Assembly: GCA_034668585.1 (NCBI GenBank)
Contig: JAXDPB010000007.1
Coordinates: 19,051-83,050 of the forward strand
Source: Sphingomonadales bacterium
GTDB lineage: Bacteria; Pseudomonadota; Alphaproteobacteria; Sphingomonadales; Sphingomonadaceae
Length of the DNA stretch: 64,000 bases
Direction: 5' to 3'
Below are positions 3 through 20,608 of this stretch, in pieces; within the stretch, counting starts at the first letter, position 1; each line of letters opens with the position of its first letter. The translations under genes and the position numbers were made by a program. The notes below the pieces were generated by a model. The model worked only from the letters and a program-made list of their open reading frames with translations. It ran no database searches and was not told the DNA's origin.

Positions 3-449
3 GCCGGGCTGGCGGAGATTTCCGGCGTCTACAGCCGGCTGGCGGCGCTCGAGATGCTGATGTTCCCGCTGCCGCCGCCCGGCGGCGGGCTAGTGGGATC
101 GGTCTCGTCCGCCCTCGGAATCACCGCGGCCGCGCCGTCGCGATCGGTGCCCGCCGGCGATCTGCCGCTGGTGCTCTTCGTATGGGGTCCCGGCCGCATA
201 GTACCGGTGCGGGTGACCAGCTTCACGGTCACCGAGAAGCTCTACGATTCGCTGCTGCTCAATCCGACCCACGCCGAGGCCCAGATCGGGCTGCGCGTGC
301 TCGCCTATAACGAGCTCAGCGACCTTAACGACATCATGAAGCCGATCGCCCAGGCCGCCTCCACCTATTCGCAGAAGCTGCGCCAGGCGCTCGCCCTCGC
401 AAACCTCGCCAACGCCGCCGACTCGATGGTCGGCATGCTGCCGATCTAG
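3..449 (+). CDS. CIS tube-family / Afp7-like protein, C-terminal part (5'-truncated)
   Basis: Frame open from base 3: AGLAEISGVYSRLAALEMLMFP...PLVLFVWGPGRIVPVRVTSFTVTEKLYD...P.HAEAQIGLRVL, the motif pattern of eCIS CIS_tube-type proteins; position upstream of LysM and hub genes. Confidence 0.7.
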   Translation, partial: AGLAEISGVYSRLAALEMLMFPLPPPGGGLVGSVSSALGITAAAPSRSVPAGDLPLVLFVWGPGRIVPVRVTSFTVTEKLYDSLLLNPTHAEAQIGLRVLAYNELSDLNDIMKPIAQAASTYSQKLRQALALANLANAADSMVGMLPI

Positions 450-456
450 GAGCCCT

Positions 457-738
457 ATGTTCACCGCCAACAGCCGCTATTTCGGATTGGGAACCTACAG
501 CGTCACGCTGGCCGACGGCCGCACCGTCACGGCGACGACGCTACCGGCTTCCGAGCGCGGCGCGCTGCTCGGATATCACCCCAAGGTGGCGGGCGACCGT
601 CTCGACCTGCTCGCGGCGCGCTATCTGAAGGAGCCCACCGCTTTCTGGCGTCTGTGCGACGCCAACACCTCCTTCTCGCCGGACGCGCTGATCGCGCGCG
701 AGCTGATCGGCATTCCGTCGCAGGCGAAGAGCCGATGA
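457..738 (+). CDS. LysM-like / phage tail protein X-like small baseplate protein (93 aa)
   Basis: MF..NSRY N-terminus and GDRLDLLAARYLKEPTAFWRLCDAN...P..L.....IGIP LysM/gp53-like motif; stop overlaps next start (ATGA). Confidence 0.7.
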   Translation: MFTANSRYFGLGTYSVTLADGRTVTATTLPASERGALLGYHPKVAGDRLDLLAARYLKEPTAFWRLCDANTSFSPDALIARELIGIPSQAKSR

Positions 739-1835
739 CGAGCAGCTTCGACCTCCTTGCCGGCGGGGCCCCCGTCTCCGACTTCGACACCAGCCTGCTC
801 GATCTGGAAATCGAGGAGAATGTCGATTTGCCGGGCGCGTTCCGAATGACCTTGCCGGTCAGGGTGTCGGCGACGAGCGATTACGACACCCCCTCGGATC
901 CGCGCTTCGGCCCGCTTGCGAACATCGCCGTGACCGCCCAGGCCGCGGACGGCCAGGCCCATTGCCTGATCGACGGCTACGTCCTCGCTCACGACCTCCA
1001 CCTCGATACCGCCGCCGCCGCCAGCACGGTCAAGATCAGCGGCCAGGACGCGAGCTGGCTGATGAACATGACCGAGACGGTGCGCGAATGGCCCGACGTC
1101 ACCGACGGCGCCGCCGCCAACACGATCTTCGGCGATTACGGCTTCACTCCGGACCCGAAGAATCTTGACGACGATTCCCCGGCCCATACCGCCGATACCG
1201 CCAGCCTGATGCAGCGCGCGAGCGACGCGCAATTCCTGCGCGACCTCGCCCGCCGCGGCGGCAAGCTGTTCCGAGTCTTCTGCACCGACACGCCGGGCGT
1301 GAGGATCGGCGCGTTCGTGACTCCCTCGCTCGACGGCGAACCGGCCGTCACCCTGATCCTCAATCCCGCCGATGCCGCCAATGTCGGGCCGCTCGATATC
1401 AGCTGGGACGTGATGCGGCCGAGCAGCGTCGTCGCCCAGCAATTGCTGGTCAGCGACGACAGCGGCGAAGCGGCCGGCGGCGAGACGACGACGTCGGGCC
1501 TGGCCACGCTGGACAGCCAGGATCTCGCCGCCTTCGCCGGCCAGCCGGTCAAGGCGCTGCTGACGACCCAGGCCGCCGACGCGGGCACGGTGACGCAGCG
1601 CGCCCAGTCGCTGTTGCGCGATTCCGGCTGGTTCGTCCGGTGCGAGGGAACGACCGATGCCGGGCGCCTGGGCGCGATCCTGCGTGCCGGCACGGTGGCT
1701 CAGATCGAAGCGGCCGGGTCGCTCCATTCGGGCAAATATCTCGTCTGGAGCGTTCGACACCACATCACCGCCAACGCGCACGAGATGAAGTTCGTGCTGA
1801 TGCGCAACGCGGTCGGCACGTCGGGGGGGCTGTGA
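735..1835 (+). CDS. Phage late-control D (gpD/gp27-like) hub protein
   Basis: ATG at 735 coupled to previous stop; motifs SGQDASWLMN, QRASDAQFLRDLARRGG, LRAGTVAQIEAAG..HSGKYLVWSVRHHI typical of gpD-like hubs. Confidence 0.75.
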   Translation: MTSSFDLLAGGAPVSDFDTSLLDLEIEENVDLPGAFRMTLPVRVSATSDYDTPSDPRFGPLANIAVTAQAADGQAHCLIDGYVLAHDLHLDTAAAASTVKISGQDASWLMNMTETVREWPDVTDGAAANTIFGDYGFTPDPKNLDDDSPAHTADTASLMQRASDAQFLRDLARRGGKLFRVFCTDTPGVRIGAFVTPSLDGEPAVTLILNPADAANVGPLDISWDVMRPSSVVAQQLLVSDDSGEAAGGETTTSGLATLDSQDLAAFAGQPVKALLTTQAADAGTVTQRAQSLLRDSGWFVRCEGTTDAGRLGAILRAGTVAQIEAAGSLHSGKYLVWSVRHHITANAHEMKFVLMRNAVGTSGGL

Positions 1836-18916: not shown

Positions 18917-18920
18917 CGAC

Positions 18921-19523
18921 ATGCCCGATTCTTCCGACACCCTGAGAGCCTCGATCTTCGCAGCCTTCGCGGCGCGCCCTCGCCCGGCCGCCGACGCAAT
19001 CCTTCGGCCGGAGGCGGGCCGGGAGGGTGATGAATTGCGCCTGTTGCTGGCCGAGGAGTCGCCCGAAACCCTCTCCACGAAAGAGGTCAGGGCGAAGATC
19101 GAAGGGAGGCTCTGGATGCTGGGCGCGGAATGCTTCCGTTATTTTCTGCCCGGCCTGCTGCTTGCCGCCCTCGATCCTCCGGGTCGCCCCGGCCCGTTCG
19201 CCGAGGAATTGGTCGATGCCCTGACCGAGCCGTCCCGCCAGGATATCGAAGACATGCTGGACCGCATCGGCCGGGCTCCCGCGCAAGCCCGCCTGGATGA
19301 GGACGTGGCCGAGTCGCTGCAGCGGCAACTGCTTACCTGGTTCGATTCGGGAGCGCCGGAAGCGGTCTTTCGCGACCGTTTCGACGACATCACCCAGCGC
19401 GAAGGCGCGGCGATCCTCTCCTTCCTCGACCGGTTGAGGGCCGAGAACGACTCCGACTTCCTCGAAGAATCGCTCGATCGCGCCGAAAGCCGCTTCTGGT
19501 CGCGCTTCCGGCGATTGCAGTGA
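18921..19523 (+). CDS. DUF6714-like protein, candidate immunity protein (200 aa)
   Basis: ATG 5 bp after protein 3 stop; LWML...CFRYFLPGLL motif recalled from DUF6714-type proteins. Confidence 0.55.
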   Translation: MPDSSDTLRASIFAAFAARPRPAADAILRPEAGREGDELRLLLAEESPETLSTKEVRAKIEGRLWMLGAECFRYFLPGLLLAALDPPGRPGPFAEELVDALTEPSRQDIEDMLDRIGRAPAQARLDEDVAESLQRQLLTWFDSGAPEAVFRDRFDDITQREGAAILSFLDRLRAENDSDFLEESLDRAESRFWSRFRRLQ

Positions 19524-20608
19524 CGACCGGGCGCCCGGCACCGGCCCCGGCCGCGCCCGAGCGGGCGCAGTGCGAATCCTGCGCGCCGCAGCCACCCAAT
19601 GTCGGGCACCGCGCTCCGACCCACCGCGCGACGGGCAACCAGGCGCATCTGCGCCGGCTCGCGGTCAGTCAGGACGATGAGGAAGTGCATCCGCTGCGGC
19701 GCAAATCGGCGGCCGGCGGGATGGATGGAGCAGCCGCCCCGCCGATCGTCGACTCGGTGTTGAATTCGCCCGGCCGCCCGCTCGATCCAATGACTCAGGA
19801 ATTCATGGCGAGCGGCTTCGGCACCGATTTCAGCGACGTGCGCATCCATTCCGACCCCCAGGCTGCGCGGTCCGCGGCGGCGGTCGACGCGTTAGCCTAT
19901 ACGGTGGGGCGCGATATCGTGTTCGGCTCGGGTCAGTATGATCCCAATGCGCAGGCCGGTCGGCATTTGCTCGCGCATGAGCTTGCCCATGTCGTCCAGC
20001 ACCGCGGAGCCGACATGCTCAACCGCACGCCCCTGGCCCGAAAGGCGGAAAAGGGCCGAGCGCTTCACTGGGGCCAGGAGACGACATGTTCGGAATGGGG
20101 CTTCGTCGAAAGCGTGCACGAATATGGCGAAGGCGAGAAGTGGAAGTCCGAGAGCTGCTGCAACAGCTGGCCGTTCGCCCTTGAAAACTATGCCCGAATG
20201 GAGGGGTGGGCGGGCGCGGCTTCGTGCAGGGGGCACAAGCGTGAGATCGCGACGGTCACTTATGGGGATCGTCAGGTAGAGGTTCTGTGCTCGGACTCCA
20301 TCGGGACCGCTAAGGATCACCCGGCGAACCCGGCTAAGGATCACCCGGAGAACCCGGCTAAGGATCACCCGGCGAACCCGGCTAAGGATCAGCTGATCGA
20401 ATTGAGCCCGGCTGCGATGCTGGACCTTTCGGGACAATTGGAAAACCTGCGCAGCGTGTCCGTCACCTATTCAGGCTCGAAGATACCTCTCTGTCCGTTC
20501 GGCGACGACCATACTCCGAGGAACCCTAGCGCCGAGCGGTGTCTCACACGCGGCTGCCAACCGGCCGAGGGTTCGCCGAACGACAATTCGAGCTGGCCGC
20601 CGGTATGA
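19520..20608 (+). CDS. DUF4157 eCIS-core protein 4: shortened leader + DUF4157 + DPBB-like domain with tandem repeat
   Basis: GTGA-coupled start; FGTDFSDVRIHSD...LLAHELAHVVQH; C-terminal ATVTYGDRQVEVLCSDSIG...LIELSPAAMLDL resembles RlpA/expansin double-psi beta-barrels. Confidence 0.7.
   Translation: MTTGRPAPAPAAPERAQCESCAPQPPNVGHRAPTHRATGNQAHLRRLAVSQDDEEVHPLRRKSAAGGMDGAAAPPIVDSVLNSPGRPLDPMTQEFMASGFGTDFSDVRIHSDPQAARSAAAVDALAYTVGRDIVFGSGQYDPNAQAGRHLLAHELAHVVQHRGADMLNRTPLARKAEKGRALHWGQETTCSEWGFVESVHEYGEGEKWKSESCCNSWPFALENYARMEGWAGAASCRGHKREIATVTYGDRQVEVLCSDSIGTAKDHPANPAKDHPENPAKDHPANPAKDQLIELSPAAMLDLSGQLENLRSVSVTYSGSKIPLCPFGDDHTPRNPSAERCLTRGCQPAEGSPNDNSSWPPV
20309..20391 (+). repeat. 24-bp tandem repeat (about 3.5 copies) encoding AKDHP(A/E)NP
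   Basis: gctaaggatcacccggcgaacccg / gctaaggatcacccggagaacccg / gctaaggatcacccggcgaacccg / gctaaggatca read directly. Confidence 0.97.

Follow-up and report, generated by a model that had tools for sequence, protein, structure and literature searches.

The window, a 64,000-nucleotide stretch of DNA from a Sphingomonadales bacterium, opens inside a complete operon for an extracellular contractile injection system (eCIS) of the Afp/PVC type and holds its 3' half, followed by a module of four cargo genes in which a shared leader and a DUF4157 domain are joined to four C-terminal modules. This agrees with the modular cargo library of the original prediction. In what we consider a likely overall explanation, the four proteins would be lumen cargos with toxin ends, the two small genes between them (s2 and s3) would confer immunity, and the bacterial envelope would be the target. 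We infer loading, toxicity, target and protection at this locus from analogy and synteny.

The remainder of the operon lies upstream on the same contig, where a Pfam search of the preceding 19 kb found sheath, gp19 tube, Pvc16_N cap and AAA ATPase genes, with a LuxR/GerE response regulator upstream as well. Inside the window are the spike, gp25, two Baseplate_J genes and the DUF6519/eBAP5 fibre (Table 1). The first ORF had no family match in Pfam. The Phage_GPD match of the hub-like protein (E 3.9e-4, 20.1 bits) was below the cut-off of 30.1, and the DUF4280 match (PF14107, E 0.0027) of the possible tip protein was also below its cut-off; the true start of the latter is probably near 2340. The gp25-like domain was confined to the last 95 residues of its ORF, which probably also starts later than listed. 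The 726-amino-acid protein matched no Pfam or NCBIfam family; it was 82-84% identical in the related locus L087 and 43-52% identical in L011, L068 and L069, and in related loci its gene always precedes the fibre gene. The DUF6519 domain of the fibre (E about 2.7e-11 to 7e-11) has been named eBAP5, a fibre anchor (PMC12923769).

Table 1. Features of the eCIS operon end and cargo module (window coordinates; g, cargo gene)
Feature	Coordinates	Strand	Basis or remark
End of eCIS operon ORF, start upstream of window (contig position 18792)	3..449	+	ORF lists
Baseplate hub-like protein	654..1835	+	Weak Phage_GPD match PF05954
Spike protein (VgrG/gpV-like OB domain)	1640..2341	+	PF04717 Phage_base_V, E 2.4e-20
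Open frame with possible PAAR-like tip protein	1984..2661	+	Weak DUF4280 match
gp25-like baseplate wedge protein	2376..3044	+	PF04965, E 1.6e-16
Baseplate_J-like protein 1	3046..5421	+	PF04865, E 4.7e-8
Baseplate_J-like protein 2	5418..7868	+	PF04865, E 1.6e-6
Conserved 726-aa eCIS protein without family	7789..9969	+	Conservation in related loci
Tail fibre, N-terminal DUF6519 (eBAP5) baseplate anchor	9966..12881	+	PF20129
Cargo 1 (g1), 840 aa	12885..15407	+	PF13699 106.3 bits; PF14521 32.7 bits (cut-off 30)
Cargo 2 (g2), 565 aa	15502..17199	+	PF13699 108.3 bits; OmpA 44 bits
s2, 134-aa cargo 2 partner, immunity candidate	17206..17610	+	Starts 7 nt past g2 stop
Cargo 3 (g3), 407 aa	17693..18916	+	PF13699 86.9 bits; PF15523 56.7 bits (cut-off 25)
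s3, 200-aa DUF6714-like cargo 3 partner, immunity candidate	18921..19523	+	ATG 5 nt past g3 stop
Cargo 4 (g4), 362 aa	19520..20608	+	PF13699 112.5 bits; Cys-rich DPBB-like C-terminal domain
24-bp tandem repeat, 3.5 copies, encoding AKDHPxNP units	20309..20391	+	Variable loop, cargo 4 C-terminal domain

As predicted, the four DUF4157 genes lie directly 3' of the fibre gene, and all of their products matched PF13699 (eCIS_core, formerly DUF4157; cut-off of 22 bits). The segments GNQ(S/A)(H/N)LRR and HELAH(T/V)VQ(Q/H) were found in all four proteins, and the DNA motif that had been quoted for the four genes was located at 12993, 15610, 17789 and 19634 (4 matches versus 0.00 expected from 100 shuffles). 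The claim of likeness at the DNA level held for these motif matches, but the likeness did not exceed what amino acid conservation and GC3 bias together would produce. The leaders, which run through the motifs GNQxxLRR ... DPLExEAD ... RKCxxC, were 54-68% identical in nucleotides and used the same codon for no more than about half of the residues they share; judging from these sequences, the four genes are old paralogues and not recent copies. The C-termini had been called unrelated, and four differing modules were indeed present, probably representing different toxin ends, but cargos 1 and 2 have in common an OmpA-like module behind DUF4157, with a strong match in cargo 2 and a weak one in cargo 1 (E value of 0.055). 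The cargo and partner genes are tightly coupled, with gaps of 7 nt and 5 nt and an overlap of 4 nt where the s3 stop meets the cargo 4 start. The leader and all of the cargo C-terminal domains were confined to this locus within the 3.5-Mb genome. The comparison of arrays that had been proposed showed that the cargo set differs in L087, the fibre of which is 75% identical, and cargos with YkuD and PG_binding_1 domains were present in related arrays.

Neither cargo 1 nor cargo 4 is accompanied by a partner gene at the locus. Cargo 1, which starts at GTG 12885 or ATG 12906, consists of the leader, DUF4157, the weak OmpA-like module, an M35 aspzincin protease with HETAH at residue 586 and GTKDYAY at residue 602, and a 190-amino-acid extension; it matched deuterolysin (PDB 1eb6) with an E value of 0.002. 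The leader of cargo 4 is shortened by about 50 amino acids and retains GNQAHLRR. In the AF2 model of this protein (pLDDT 75.8), residues 4-44 were predicted to be disordered (pLDDT <50). Its C-terminal domain, with 37 homologues, gave DPBB proteins as the best Foldseek matches (first 5ntb, probability 0.99, E 0.023), and with such weak E values (best 0.023) we call it DPBB-like; it is probably a glycan-binding or glycan-cleaving domain. Three of the AKDHPxNP units encoded by the tandem repeat were absent from a 97% identical contig (L138) and from the homologue P0034.

In cargo 2, the leader and DUF4157 are followed by an OmpA-like peptidoglycan-binding domain, a Pro linker, and a Cys-rich C-terminal domain (residues 341-565) that had no match in Pfam or the PDB and matched 523 representative clusters. 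All nine scanned long members with this domain contained DUF4157, four of them also OmpA or PG_binding_1, and some relatives carry three PG_binding_1 copies. The small ORF reported after gene 2 proved to be a genuine conserved gene with 8 homologues, and its product, s2, is soluble and basic, without a signal peptide or membrane segment by hydropathy. An s2-like gene followed the cargo 2 C-terminal domain in six of eight contexts (the window, L131, L128, L139, L140, and L141), and one of the five other contigs with this pairing did not have the OmpA module; s2 was an orphan in two contexts (L127 and L129/L130).

Cargo 3 consists of the leader, DUF4157, an Ntox16 domain, and a conserved hydrophobic tail of about 70 amino acids (residues 330-402). 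Alignment of the Ntox16 domain showed six invariant Cys residues, an R, and a DxxH motif, which is DTGH in cargo 3. The small ORF after gene 3 was likewise borne out as a conserved gene, with 24 homologues, most of them annotated as PF20461. Its product, s3, likely starts at ATG 18921 and not at 18849, and it is acidic and all-helical, without a signal peptide or membrane segment. The AF2 model of s3 (pLDDT 94.3) had no fold match in the PDB, and because a confident model matches no solved fold, the structure is neutral on an immunity role. A homologue of s3 was found directly after a DUF4157 plus Ntox16 gene in all six places looked up, two of which lacked any further eCIS-associated call within 6 kb. 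When a scan was seeded with the Ntox16 domain alone, about 24 of the 31 metagenomic loci that could be evaluated had an s3-like ORF 3' of the toxin, while about 7 had no recognisable s3-like gene. The positive loci included 1141-amino-acid Transglut_core proteins that end in Ntox16 without DUF4157 or the hydrophobic tail, and in L114/L115, L119/L120, L122, and L123 a tail-less and DUF4157-less Ntox16 domain at the extreme C terminus was followed by an s3-like gene. Therefore, the partner tracks the toxin domain and not the trafficking parts. Wider members of the DUF6714 family were found near an RHS toxin end and adjoining an Imm33-like gene. Taken with the s2 contexts, these counts favor the description of the small genes as immunity-like partners, with protection itself presumed.

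[quoted passage not shown] By analogy with Cgo1, Cgo2, and Alg15 of AlgoCIS, the shared, largely disordered, system-specific leader would be recognised by the AAA+ ATPase of the operon, and DUF4157 would be an accessory zincin-like module behind it. The variable C-terminal modules would serve as warheads: a putative M35-type zinc protease in cargo 1, a peptidoglycan-binding OmpA module with a widespread, nameless Cys-rich domain in cargo 2, Ntox16 with a tail that may insert into membranes in cargo 3, and a DPBB-like domain that probably binds or cleaves glycan in cargo 4. Most likely, s3 binds and neutralises Ntox16 and s2 does the same for the cargo 2 C-terminal domain, as cognate immunity proteins; since neither has an export signal, they would act in the producer cytoplasm. 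Modules that bind the cell wall, together with the two partner genes, point towards bacteria as the targets and towards an attack on the envelope. The suggested antibacterial use is plausible, with OmpA or PG_binding_1, DPBB-like, and YkuD-type domains in the cargos or their relatives.

It is unlikely that s2 and s3 are loading chaperones or adaptors rather than immunity proteins. Comparable to the Eag chaperones and the DUF4123/DUF1795 adaptors of T6SS effectors, they would maintain the cargo in a soluble, unfolded-competent state in the cytoplasm, ready for threading into the tube by the AAA+ ATPase, and the partner of cargo 3 would shield its hydrophobic segment. Both are soluble and cytoplasmic, such a segment would need shielding, and the s3 fold is unlike any known immunity protein; Danov 2024 (PMC11297309) also raises a chaperone role for genes adjoining DUF4157. 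However, the s3-like genes after tail-less Ntox16 without the DUF4157 leader, the RHS and Imm33-like neighbors of DUF6714, and the cargo-less s2 genes, which fit orphan immunity genes better, argue against this.

A main target among eukaryotes (protists, fungi, or invertebrates), as for Afp, PVC, and MAC, with the partners protecting the producer only before loading, appears quite improbable. It would agree with the partnerless cargos 1 and 4, since Zhang 2012 (PMC3482391) read toxins without a partner gene as targeting distant organisms, and interactions with eukaryotes commonly involve M35 proteases and DPBB proteins (cerato-platanins, expansins, and papain inhibitor), but the recurring peptidoglycan-binding OmpA, PG_binding_1, and YkuD domains have no eukaryotic substrate, and conserved toxin-partner pairs, of which there are two here, typify interbacterial weapons. 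We regard it as very unlikely that the four proteins, or some of them, are lysis or release factors of the producer, in which the cargo 3 tail would open the membrane and cargos 2 (OmpA linked), 4 (DPBB), and 1 (protease) the wall, so that particles escape, with s2 and s3 as timing brakes. Release of eCIS particles needs lysis, to which toxins may contribute (Geller 2021, PMC8213781), Pfam and family searches recognised no holin or endolysin in the operon, and the cargos have wall-related modules and, in cargo 3, a holin-like hydrophobic hairpin. Yet all four lack a signal peptide that would take them to the producer periplasm, the same build is that of lumen cargo freed on contraction in AlgoCIS, and Ntox16/s3 pairs also occur without further eCIS-associated calls within 6 kb and on non-eCIS toxins.

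The novelty implied by the original prediction was not borne out: published work already covers this architecture, eCIS toxins with antibacterial activity, and immunity pairs in eCIS, and the layout has been described since 2012 (Zhang 2012; Geller 2021; AlgoCIS Cgo1/Cgo2). Arrays of at least four cargo genes were also common (9 of 53 sampled loci). The pairing of Ntox16 with DUF6714 and the large unnamed family of the cargo 2 C-terminal domain appear to be new details. In AlgoCIS, Cgo1 and Cgo2, built of an NTD, DUF4157, and a CTD, fill the tube lumen, and loading requires the NTD while DUF4157 is dispensable (PMC8894135, 2022; PROCIS preprint, bioRxiv 10.64898/2026.05.27.728243). Both systems have several cargos per cluster with a shared disordered leader, DUF4157, and differing C-terminal domains, one of them a predicted metalloprotease, and an AAA+ ATPase in the operon. 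However, AlgoCIS has two cargos versus four predicted ones here, its leader is unlike the one described here, and no dedicated partner genes have been reported for Cgo1 or Cgo2, whereas two of our cargos have them. Zhang, de Souza, Anantharaman, Iyer, and Aravind (PMC3482391) described polymorphic toxins headed by a PVC-metallopeptidase, proposed interbacterial use, and listed Ntox16 and "Tox-OmpA" as PVC exported and linked to that peptidase. Their table gives Ntox16 without an immunity protein, whereas in our data a DUF6714-like gene regularly follows it, and the Cys-rich domain of cargo 2 falls outside Pfam families, including the toxin domains of Zhang 2012 where Pfam holds them. The eCIS-associated toxins (EATs; Geller 2021, PMC8213781; Danov 2024, PMC11297309) are encoded in the 3' part of eCIS operons, at the end, and frequently carry an N-terminal DUF4157; antibacterial activity has been demonstrated, some have cognate immunity genes, and GerE-type regulators adjoin the operons. 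The cargo position, DUF4157, partner genes, and upstream LuxR/GerE regulator are alike here, but the pair validated in the literature combines a RES-like toxin and an Xre-like antitoxin, and the putative pairs here belong to other families.

As in Rhs, CDI, and T6SS, a small cognate gene lies right after the toxin domain and the pair moves between delivery heads, as with Ntox16 and s3-like genes on Transglut_core proteins and DUF6714 near an RHS toxin. Unlike in those systems, a released, phage-tail-like particle would carry out the delivery here, the 3.5-Mb genome yielded neither orphan toxin cassettes nor spare immunity genes, and the partners are cytoplasmic though the cargos look envelope directed. 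Export is the norm for immunity proteins that counter periplasmic toxins, and cytoplasmic s2 and s3 fit oddly with the peptidoglycan-binding modules and many conserved Cys residues of cargos 2 to 4.

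The window has a G+C content of approximately 68% and opens inside a long co-directional operon. Upstream of the window, 19 kb of the same contig (L007) carry genes for a LuxR/GerE response regulator, a contractile sheath of phage type (matched by both PF04984 and PF17482), a gp19-type inner tube (PF06841; E = 6e-35), a second tube- or baseplate-like protein, a Pvc16/Afp16-type cap (Pvc16_N; E = 1e-26), and an AAA+ ATPase of the Afp15 type, not ClpV (AAA; E = 4.5e-27; protein of approximately 700 to 1000 amino acids). Within the window, the order is a hub-like protein, a Phage_base_V spike, a PAAR-like frame, gp25, two Baseplate_J proteins, a 726-amino-acid protein, and a 971-amino-acid tail fiber protein with DUF6519 at its N terminus; the Pfam matches of the PAAR-like protein and the hub were weak. 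DUF6519 corresponds to "eBAP5," the baseplate anchor of tail fibers, in a 2026 catalogue of eCIS fibers (PMC12923769). Because the upstream genes, the baseplate genes of the window, and an eBAP5-anchored fiber are all present, the locus is, by gene content, a complete Afp/PVC-type extracellular contractile injection system (eCIS). The 726-amino-acid protein matched no Pfam or NCBIfam family, and it occupies the same place in related eCIS loci at 43 to 84% identity. Regulators flank the operon, with the LuxR/GerE response regulator upstream and, directly after the last cargo gene, an HWE histidine kinase with two PAS domains and a single-domain response regulator.

Coordinates of the features discussed (window positions unless another locus or contig is named)
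Feature	Position	Remark
LuxR/GerE response regulator	L007, 10509-11192	upstream of the operon
726-amino-acid protein	7789-9969	between baseplate genes and fiber
Cargo 1 (g1)	12885-15407	DUF4157 gene
Cargo 2 (g2)	15502-17199	DUF4157 gene
s2	17206-17610	starts 7 nt after g2
Cargo 3 (g3)	17693-18916	DUF4157 gene
s3	most likely start ATG 18921	5 nt past the g3 stop; s3 stop overlaps g4 start
Cargo 4 (g4)	19520-20608	DUF4157 gene
Leader segment of cargo 4	19520-19700	GNQAHLRR kept
24-bp tandem repeat in g4	20309-20391	3.5 copies, 96% matches
HWE histidine kinase and response regulator	20631-22593	directly after cargo 4
DUF4157 protein with cargo 2-type domain, then 206-amino-acid ORF	L092, 2752-4824	domain 31% identical
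DUF4157-YkuD fusion	L128, 2954-4321	related array
DUF4157-PG_binding_1 fusion	L087, 8046-9440	related array
PF13699 match elsewhere in the genome	C37:42594-42791	37 bits
PF13699 match elsewhere in the genome	C5:19016-19183	26 bits

The array of predicted cargo genes begins 4 nt after the fiber gene. As the original prediction had stated, four DUF4157 genes with shared GNQ and HELAH segments follow the DUF6519 gene directly: PF13699 matched all of them at 87 to 113 bits (Pfam cut-off, 22), and the HExxHxxQ signature is present in each of the four heads, which precede a variable domain. The N-terminal region common to the cargos spans approximately 210 residues and consists, in order, of GNQ(S/A)(H/N)LRR, QA(R/K)LT(I/V)GAV(D/N)DPLExEADAAADxVMR, RKCxxC, and a DUF4157 core ending in HELAH(T/V)VQ(Q/H). 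Cargo 4 is without the middle part of this leader, a block of approximately 50 residues (DPLExEAD...RKCxxC). The leaders are pairwise 41 to 63% identical in protein and 54 to 68% in DNA, with the same codon at only about half of the residues conserved between them. A strong GC3 bias alone gives that codon agreement, so the similarity of the leader DNA needs no special cause. The DNA-level pattern that had been predicted does occur at exactly the four places proposed, where it is not expected by chance, but the similarity behind it is explained by GC3 bias together with protein conservation. Recent duplication or gene conversion was ruled out by these levels of nucleotide and codon identity, and the leaders are best read as old paralogues.

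Neither the leader nor any C-terminal module occurred outside this locus in the 3.5-Mb assembly. Two other, weak PF13699 matches in the genome lacked the shared leader and were not considered part of the system; they lie in proteins of approximately 520 to 560 amino acids, with no recognizable eCIS genes adjoining in the 3 kb surveyed. Published work on AlgoCIS has established that proteins composed of an NTD, DUF4157, and a CTD fill the tube and that loading requires the NTD and not DUF4157 (Xu et al. 2022, PMC8894135; preprint bioRxiv 10.64898/2026.05.27.728243). A disordered N-terminal leader common to the cargos of one system was found here as well, the disorder being taken from the AlphaFold model of cargo 4, the only cargo leader so assessed, in which residues 4 to 44 had pLDDT values below 50. 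Among 165 DUF4157 frames from 79 loci of many phyla (L008 to L086), a (D)xxE.EAD block preceded the DUF4157 core in 80 and a GNQ(A/S)...(R/L)(L/R) block was present in 12, again across phyla. Some parts of the leader are therefore shared beyond a single system, whereas the AlgoCIS preprint states system-specific leaders for the few cargos characterized.

The C-terminal ends differ between the cargos. That of cargo 1 is a predicted M35 aspzincin metalloprotease, matching PF14521 by a narrow margin (32.7 bits; cut-off, 30). Its zinc-site motifs are HETAH at 586 and GTKDYAY at 602, where R replaces the final G of the GTxDxxYG third-ligand motif, and its closest solved structure was deuterolysin (1eb6; E = 0.002). 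A weak OmpA-like stretch in the same protein (14.2 bits; E = 0.055) fell below the PF00691 cut-off of 27.2. Cargo 4 ends in a Cys-rich domain with no Pfam match, which is well defined in the AlphaFold model and has 37 homologues, mostly behind DUF4157. Its best PDB matches were all double-psi beta-barrel (DPBB) proteins (5ntb at a probability of 0.99, 3m3g, 7dg9, and 4jcw), the kinds matched being Streptomyces papain inhibitor, cerato-platanin, DPBB domains, and bacterial expansins, with a weak best E value of 0.023 and a TM-score of 0.54 on the target. The tandem repeat of g4 encodes AKDHPxNP units in a variable loop of this domain. Six homologues of the domain (P0037 to P0039, P0043, P0045, and P0050) carry an LQRxxGNQAVQRLL leader only, with no DUF4157, and the GNQ block may mark a minimal loading signal. 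P0050 has no eCIS within 8 kb and therefore says nothing about loading.

Cargo 3 carries Ntox16 (PF15523; 56.7 bits; cut-off, 25), the signature of which is a conserved R and [DNE]xxH (Zhang et al. 2012, PMC3482391). In g3, R282 and H297 are invariant, D294-T-G-H297 fits the second motif, there are six invariant cysteines, and residues 330 to 402, behind the domain, form a conserved and strongly hydrophobic tail. Homologues of its partner s3 were located directly after a DUF4157-Ntox16 gene in all six places looked up, and two of these pairs had no other called eCIS-associated gene within 6 kb. Metagenomes were scanned with nothing but the Ntox16 domain as seed, which gave 33 loci, 31 of them with enough downstream sequence; by profiles built for this analysis, an s3-like ORF was found right behind the toxin in approximately 24 of these 31. 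The loci with an s3-like ORF included 1141-amino-acid Transglut_core proteins and others with Ntox16 at the very C terminus and neither DUF4157 nor the hydrophobic tail. The partner gene therefore goes with the toxin domain itself and with neither leader nor tail. Such linkage is characteristic of cognate immunity proteins, and s3 would be predicted to neutralize its toxin.

Against DUF6714 (PF20461), s3 scored 23.2 bits, below the cut-off of 27, while most of its homologues carry a precomputed PF20461 match; for this reason we refer to it as DUF6714-like, a divergent relative. The structural model of s3 (pLDDT, 94.3) has eleven helices and showed no relative among the solved structures of the PDB (best E = 0.86); profile matches to designed "Tet4" proteins were set aside as helical low complexity. 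None of 400 sampled genomes of the same phylum had Ntox16, so the comparison loci came from the metagenomes, and DUF6714 genes were present in four genomes of that sample, where Ntox16 is otherwise absent. Two of these genes, members of the wider DUF6714 family in loci L135 (G364:C97) and L134 (G277:C1), are located two genes after an RHS-repeat toxin end and beside an Imm33-like gene, respectively. We found no paper mentioning DUF6714.

Cargo 2 has an OmpA-like peptidoglycan-binding domain (PF00691; 44.1 bits; cut-off, 27.2), followed by a proline linker and a 225-residue Cys-rich domain that matched nothing in Pfam, NCBIfam, or the PDB, either by sequence or with a 27-sequence profile. The Cys-rich domain has relatives in 523 representative clusters at E values up to 1e-3 (128 at 1e-30) and is C-terminal in nearly all of them; a scan of viral contigs gave no further homologues. 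All nine long members scanned begin with DUF4157; between head and tail, OmpA is present in three of the nine, and three copies of PG_binding_1 are present in one. By these comparisons, the C-terminal domain of cargo 2 is a large unnamed family behind DUF4157, often placed after peptidoglycan-binding modules. The partner s2 lies directly behind a DUF4157 protein with this domain at its C terminus in six contexts (the window, L128, which has no OmpA module, L131, L139, L140, and L141) and is an orphan in two (L127 and L129/L130), and more distant relatives of the domain (L092) have another downstream gene. The linkage of s2 to the cargo 2 domain is thus consistent with a cognate pair, on thinner evidence than for s3. 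Both small ORFs noted in the original prediction proved to be conserved genes, with 8 homologues of s2 and 24 of s3. In L092, the different ORF after the DUF4157 protein encodes 206 amino acids, has no family, and lies directly upstream of an Ntox16/s3-like pair; it may represent another toxin-partner subtype.

None of the six proteins (g1 to g4, s2, and s3) had an N-terminal hydrophobic segment, and both partners look cytoplasmic. Cell-wall-binding modules and many conserved cysteines suggest that the warheads act in the envelope. Because the cargos look envelope-directed (peptidoglycan-binding modules, Cys-rich domains, and a membrane-inserting tail) but the partners have no signal peptides, we put forward, as a speculative reading that is more doubtful than probable, that the immunity logic of eCIS could differ from that of T6SS and CDI. 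The partners would be producer-side safety catches, keeping the warhead inactive, and perhaps ready for loading, until the AAA+ ATPase removes the partner, and would provide no shield against an incoming attack by kin. In the same tentative reading, the DUF6714-like proteins would be the missing partner family of Ntox16, and the cargo 2 domain (at least 523 clusters, always behind DUF4157) would make up a large effector family, so far undescribed, that has a partner of its own. Two alternatives were given low weight. The partners might be chaperones, and a pure loading chaperone is at odds with the association of s3 with Ntox16 irrespective of leader and tail; or the cargo proteins might help to lyse the producer.

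A "PVC-metallopeptidase" head joined to variable toxin tails, with several such genes per genome, was described by Zhang et al. (2012, PMC3482391), who proposed an inter-bacterial use and linked both Ntox16 and "Tox-OmpA" to PVC. Their list gives Ntox16 without an immunity protein, in contrast to the regular DUF6714-related partner family found here. Geller et al. (2021, PMC8213781) made DUF4157 an eCIS core domain, demonstrated antibacterial eCIS toxins, validated one toxin-immunity pair, and raised the producers' survival of their own eCIS toxins as an open question, on which cytoplasmic partners of envelope-directed-looking warheads bear. The known picture of eCIS cargo is left unchanged, and the new points are modest: Ntox16 is paired with DUF6714-like proteins, the Cys-rich domain of cargo 2 belongs to a large unnamed family and has a candidate partner, and both partners look cytoplasmic. 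Four cargos with different warheads, together with two candidate antidote genes, make the locus a clean and compact example that is convenient for experiments on how cargo is loaded and on eCIS targets among bacteria.

DUF4157 genes commonly stand in tandem. Among 53 DUF4157-centered loci of approximately 20 kb from many phyla, 27 had at least two DUF4157 genes, 14 at least three, and 9 at least four, and two loci had seven. The closest relative of this eCIS, L087 (fiber 75% identical; 726-amino-acid protein 82 to 84%), starts its cargo series with an Ntox16/s3 pair. Two further DUF4157 genes come next, one of them with PG_binding_1, and g1, g2/s2, and g4 are all absent from its array; cargo content therefore differs between related machines. 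The 97% identical metagenome contig L138 keeps the gene order of the window from g3 through the kinase gene and differs by three 24-bp repeat units inside g4, so the copy number varies between near-identical strains. Differing cargo sets in related loci and the synteny of the pairs support the original prediction of modular cargo with immunity-like partners. One 60-nt stretch of L087 was 88% identical to g1 and 75 to 78% identical to g2 and g3, a weak hint of leader recombination as the source of its different array that we do not claim. Related arrays also contain DUF4157 fused to a YkuD L,D-transpeptidase-type domain (L128) or to PG_binding_1 (L087), and these putative cargos add to the cell-wall theme.
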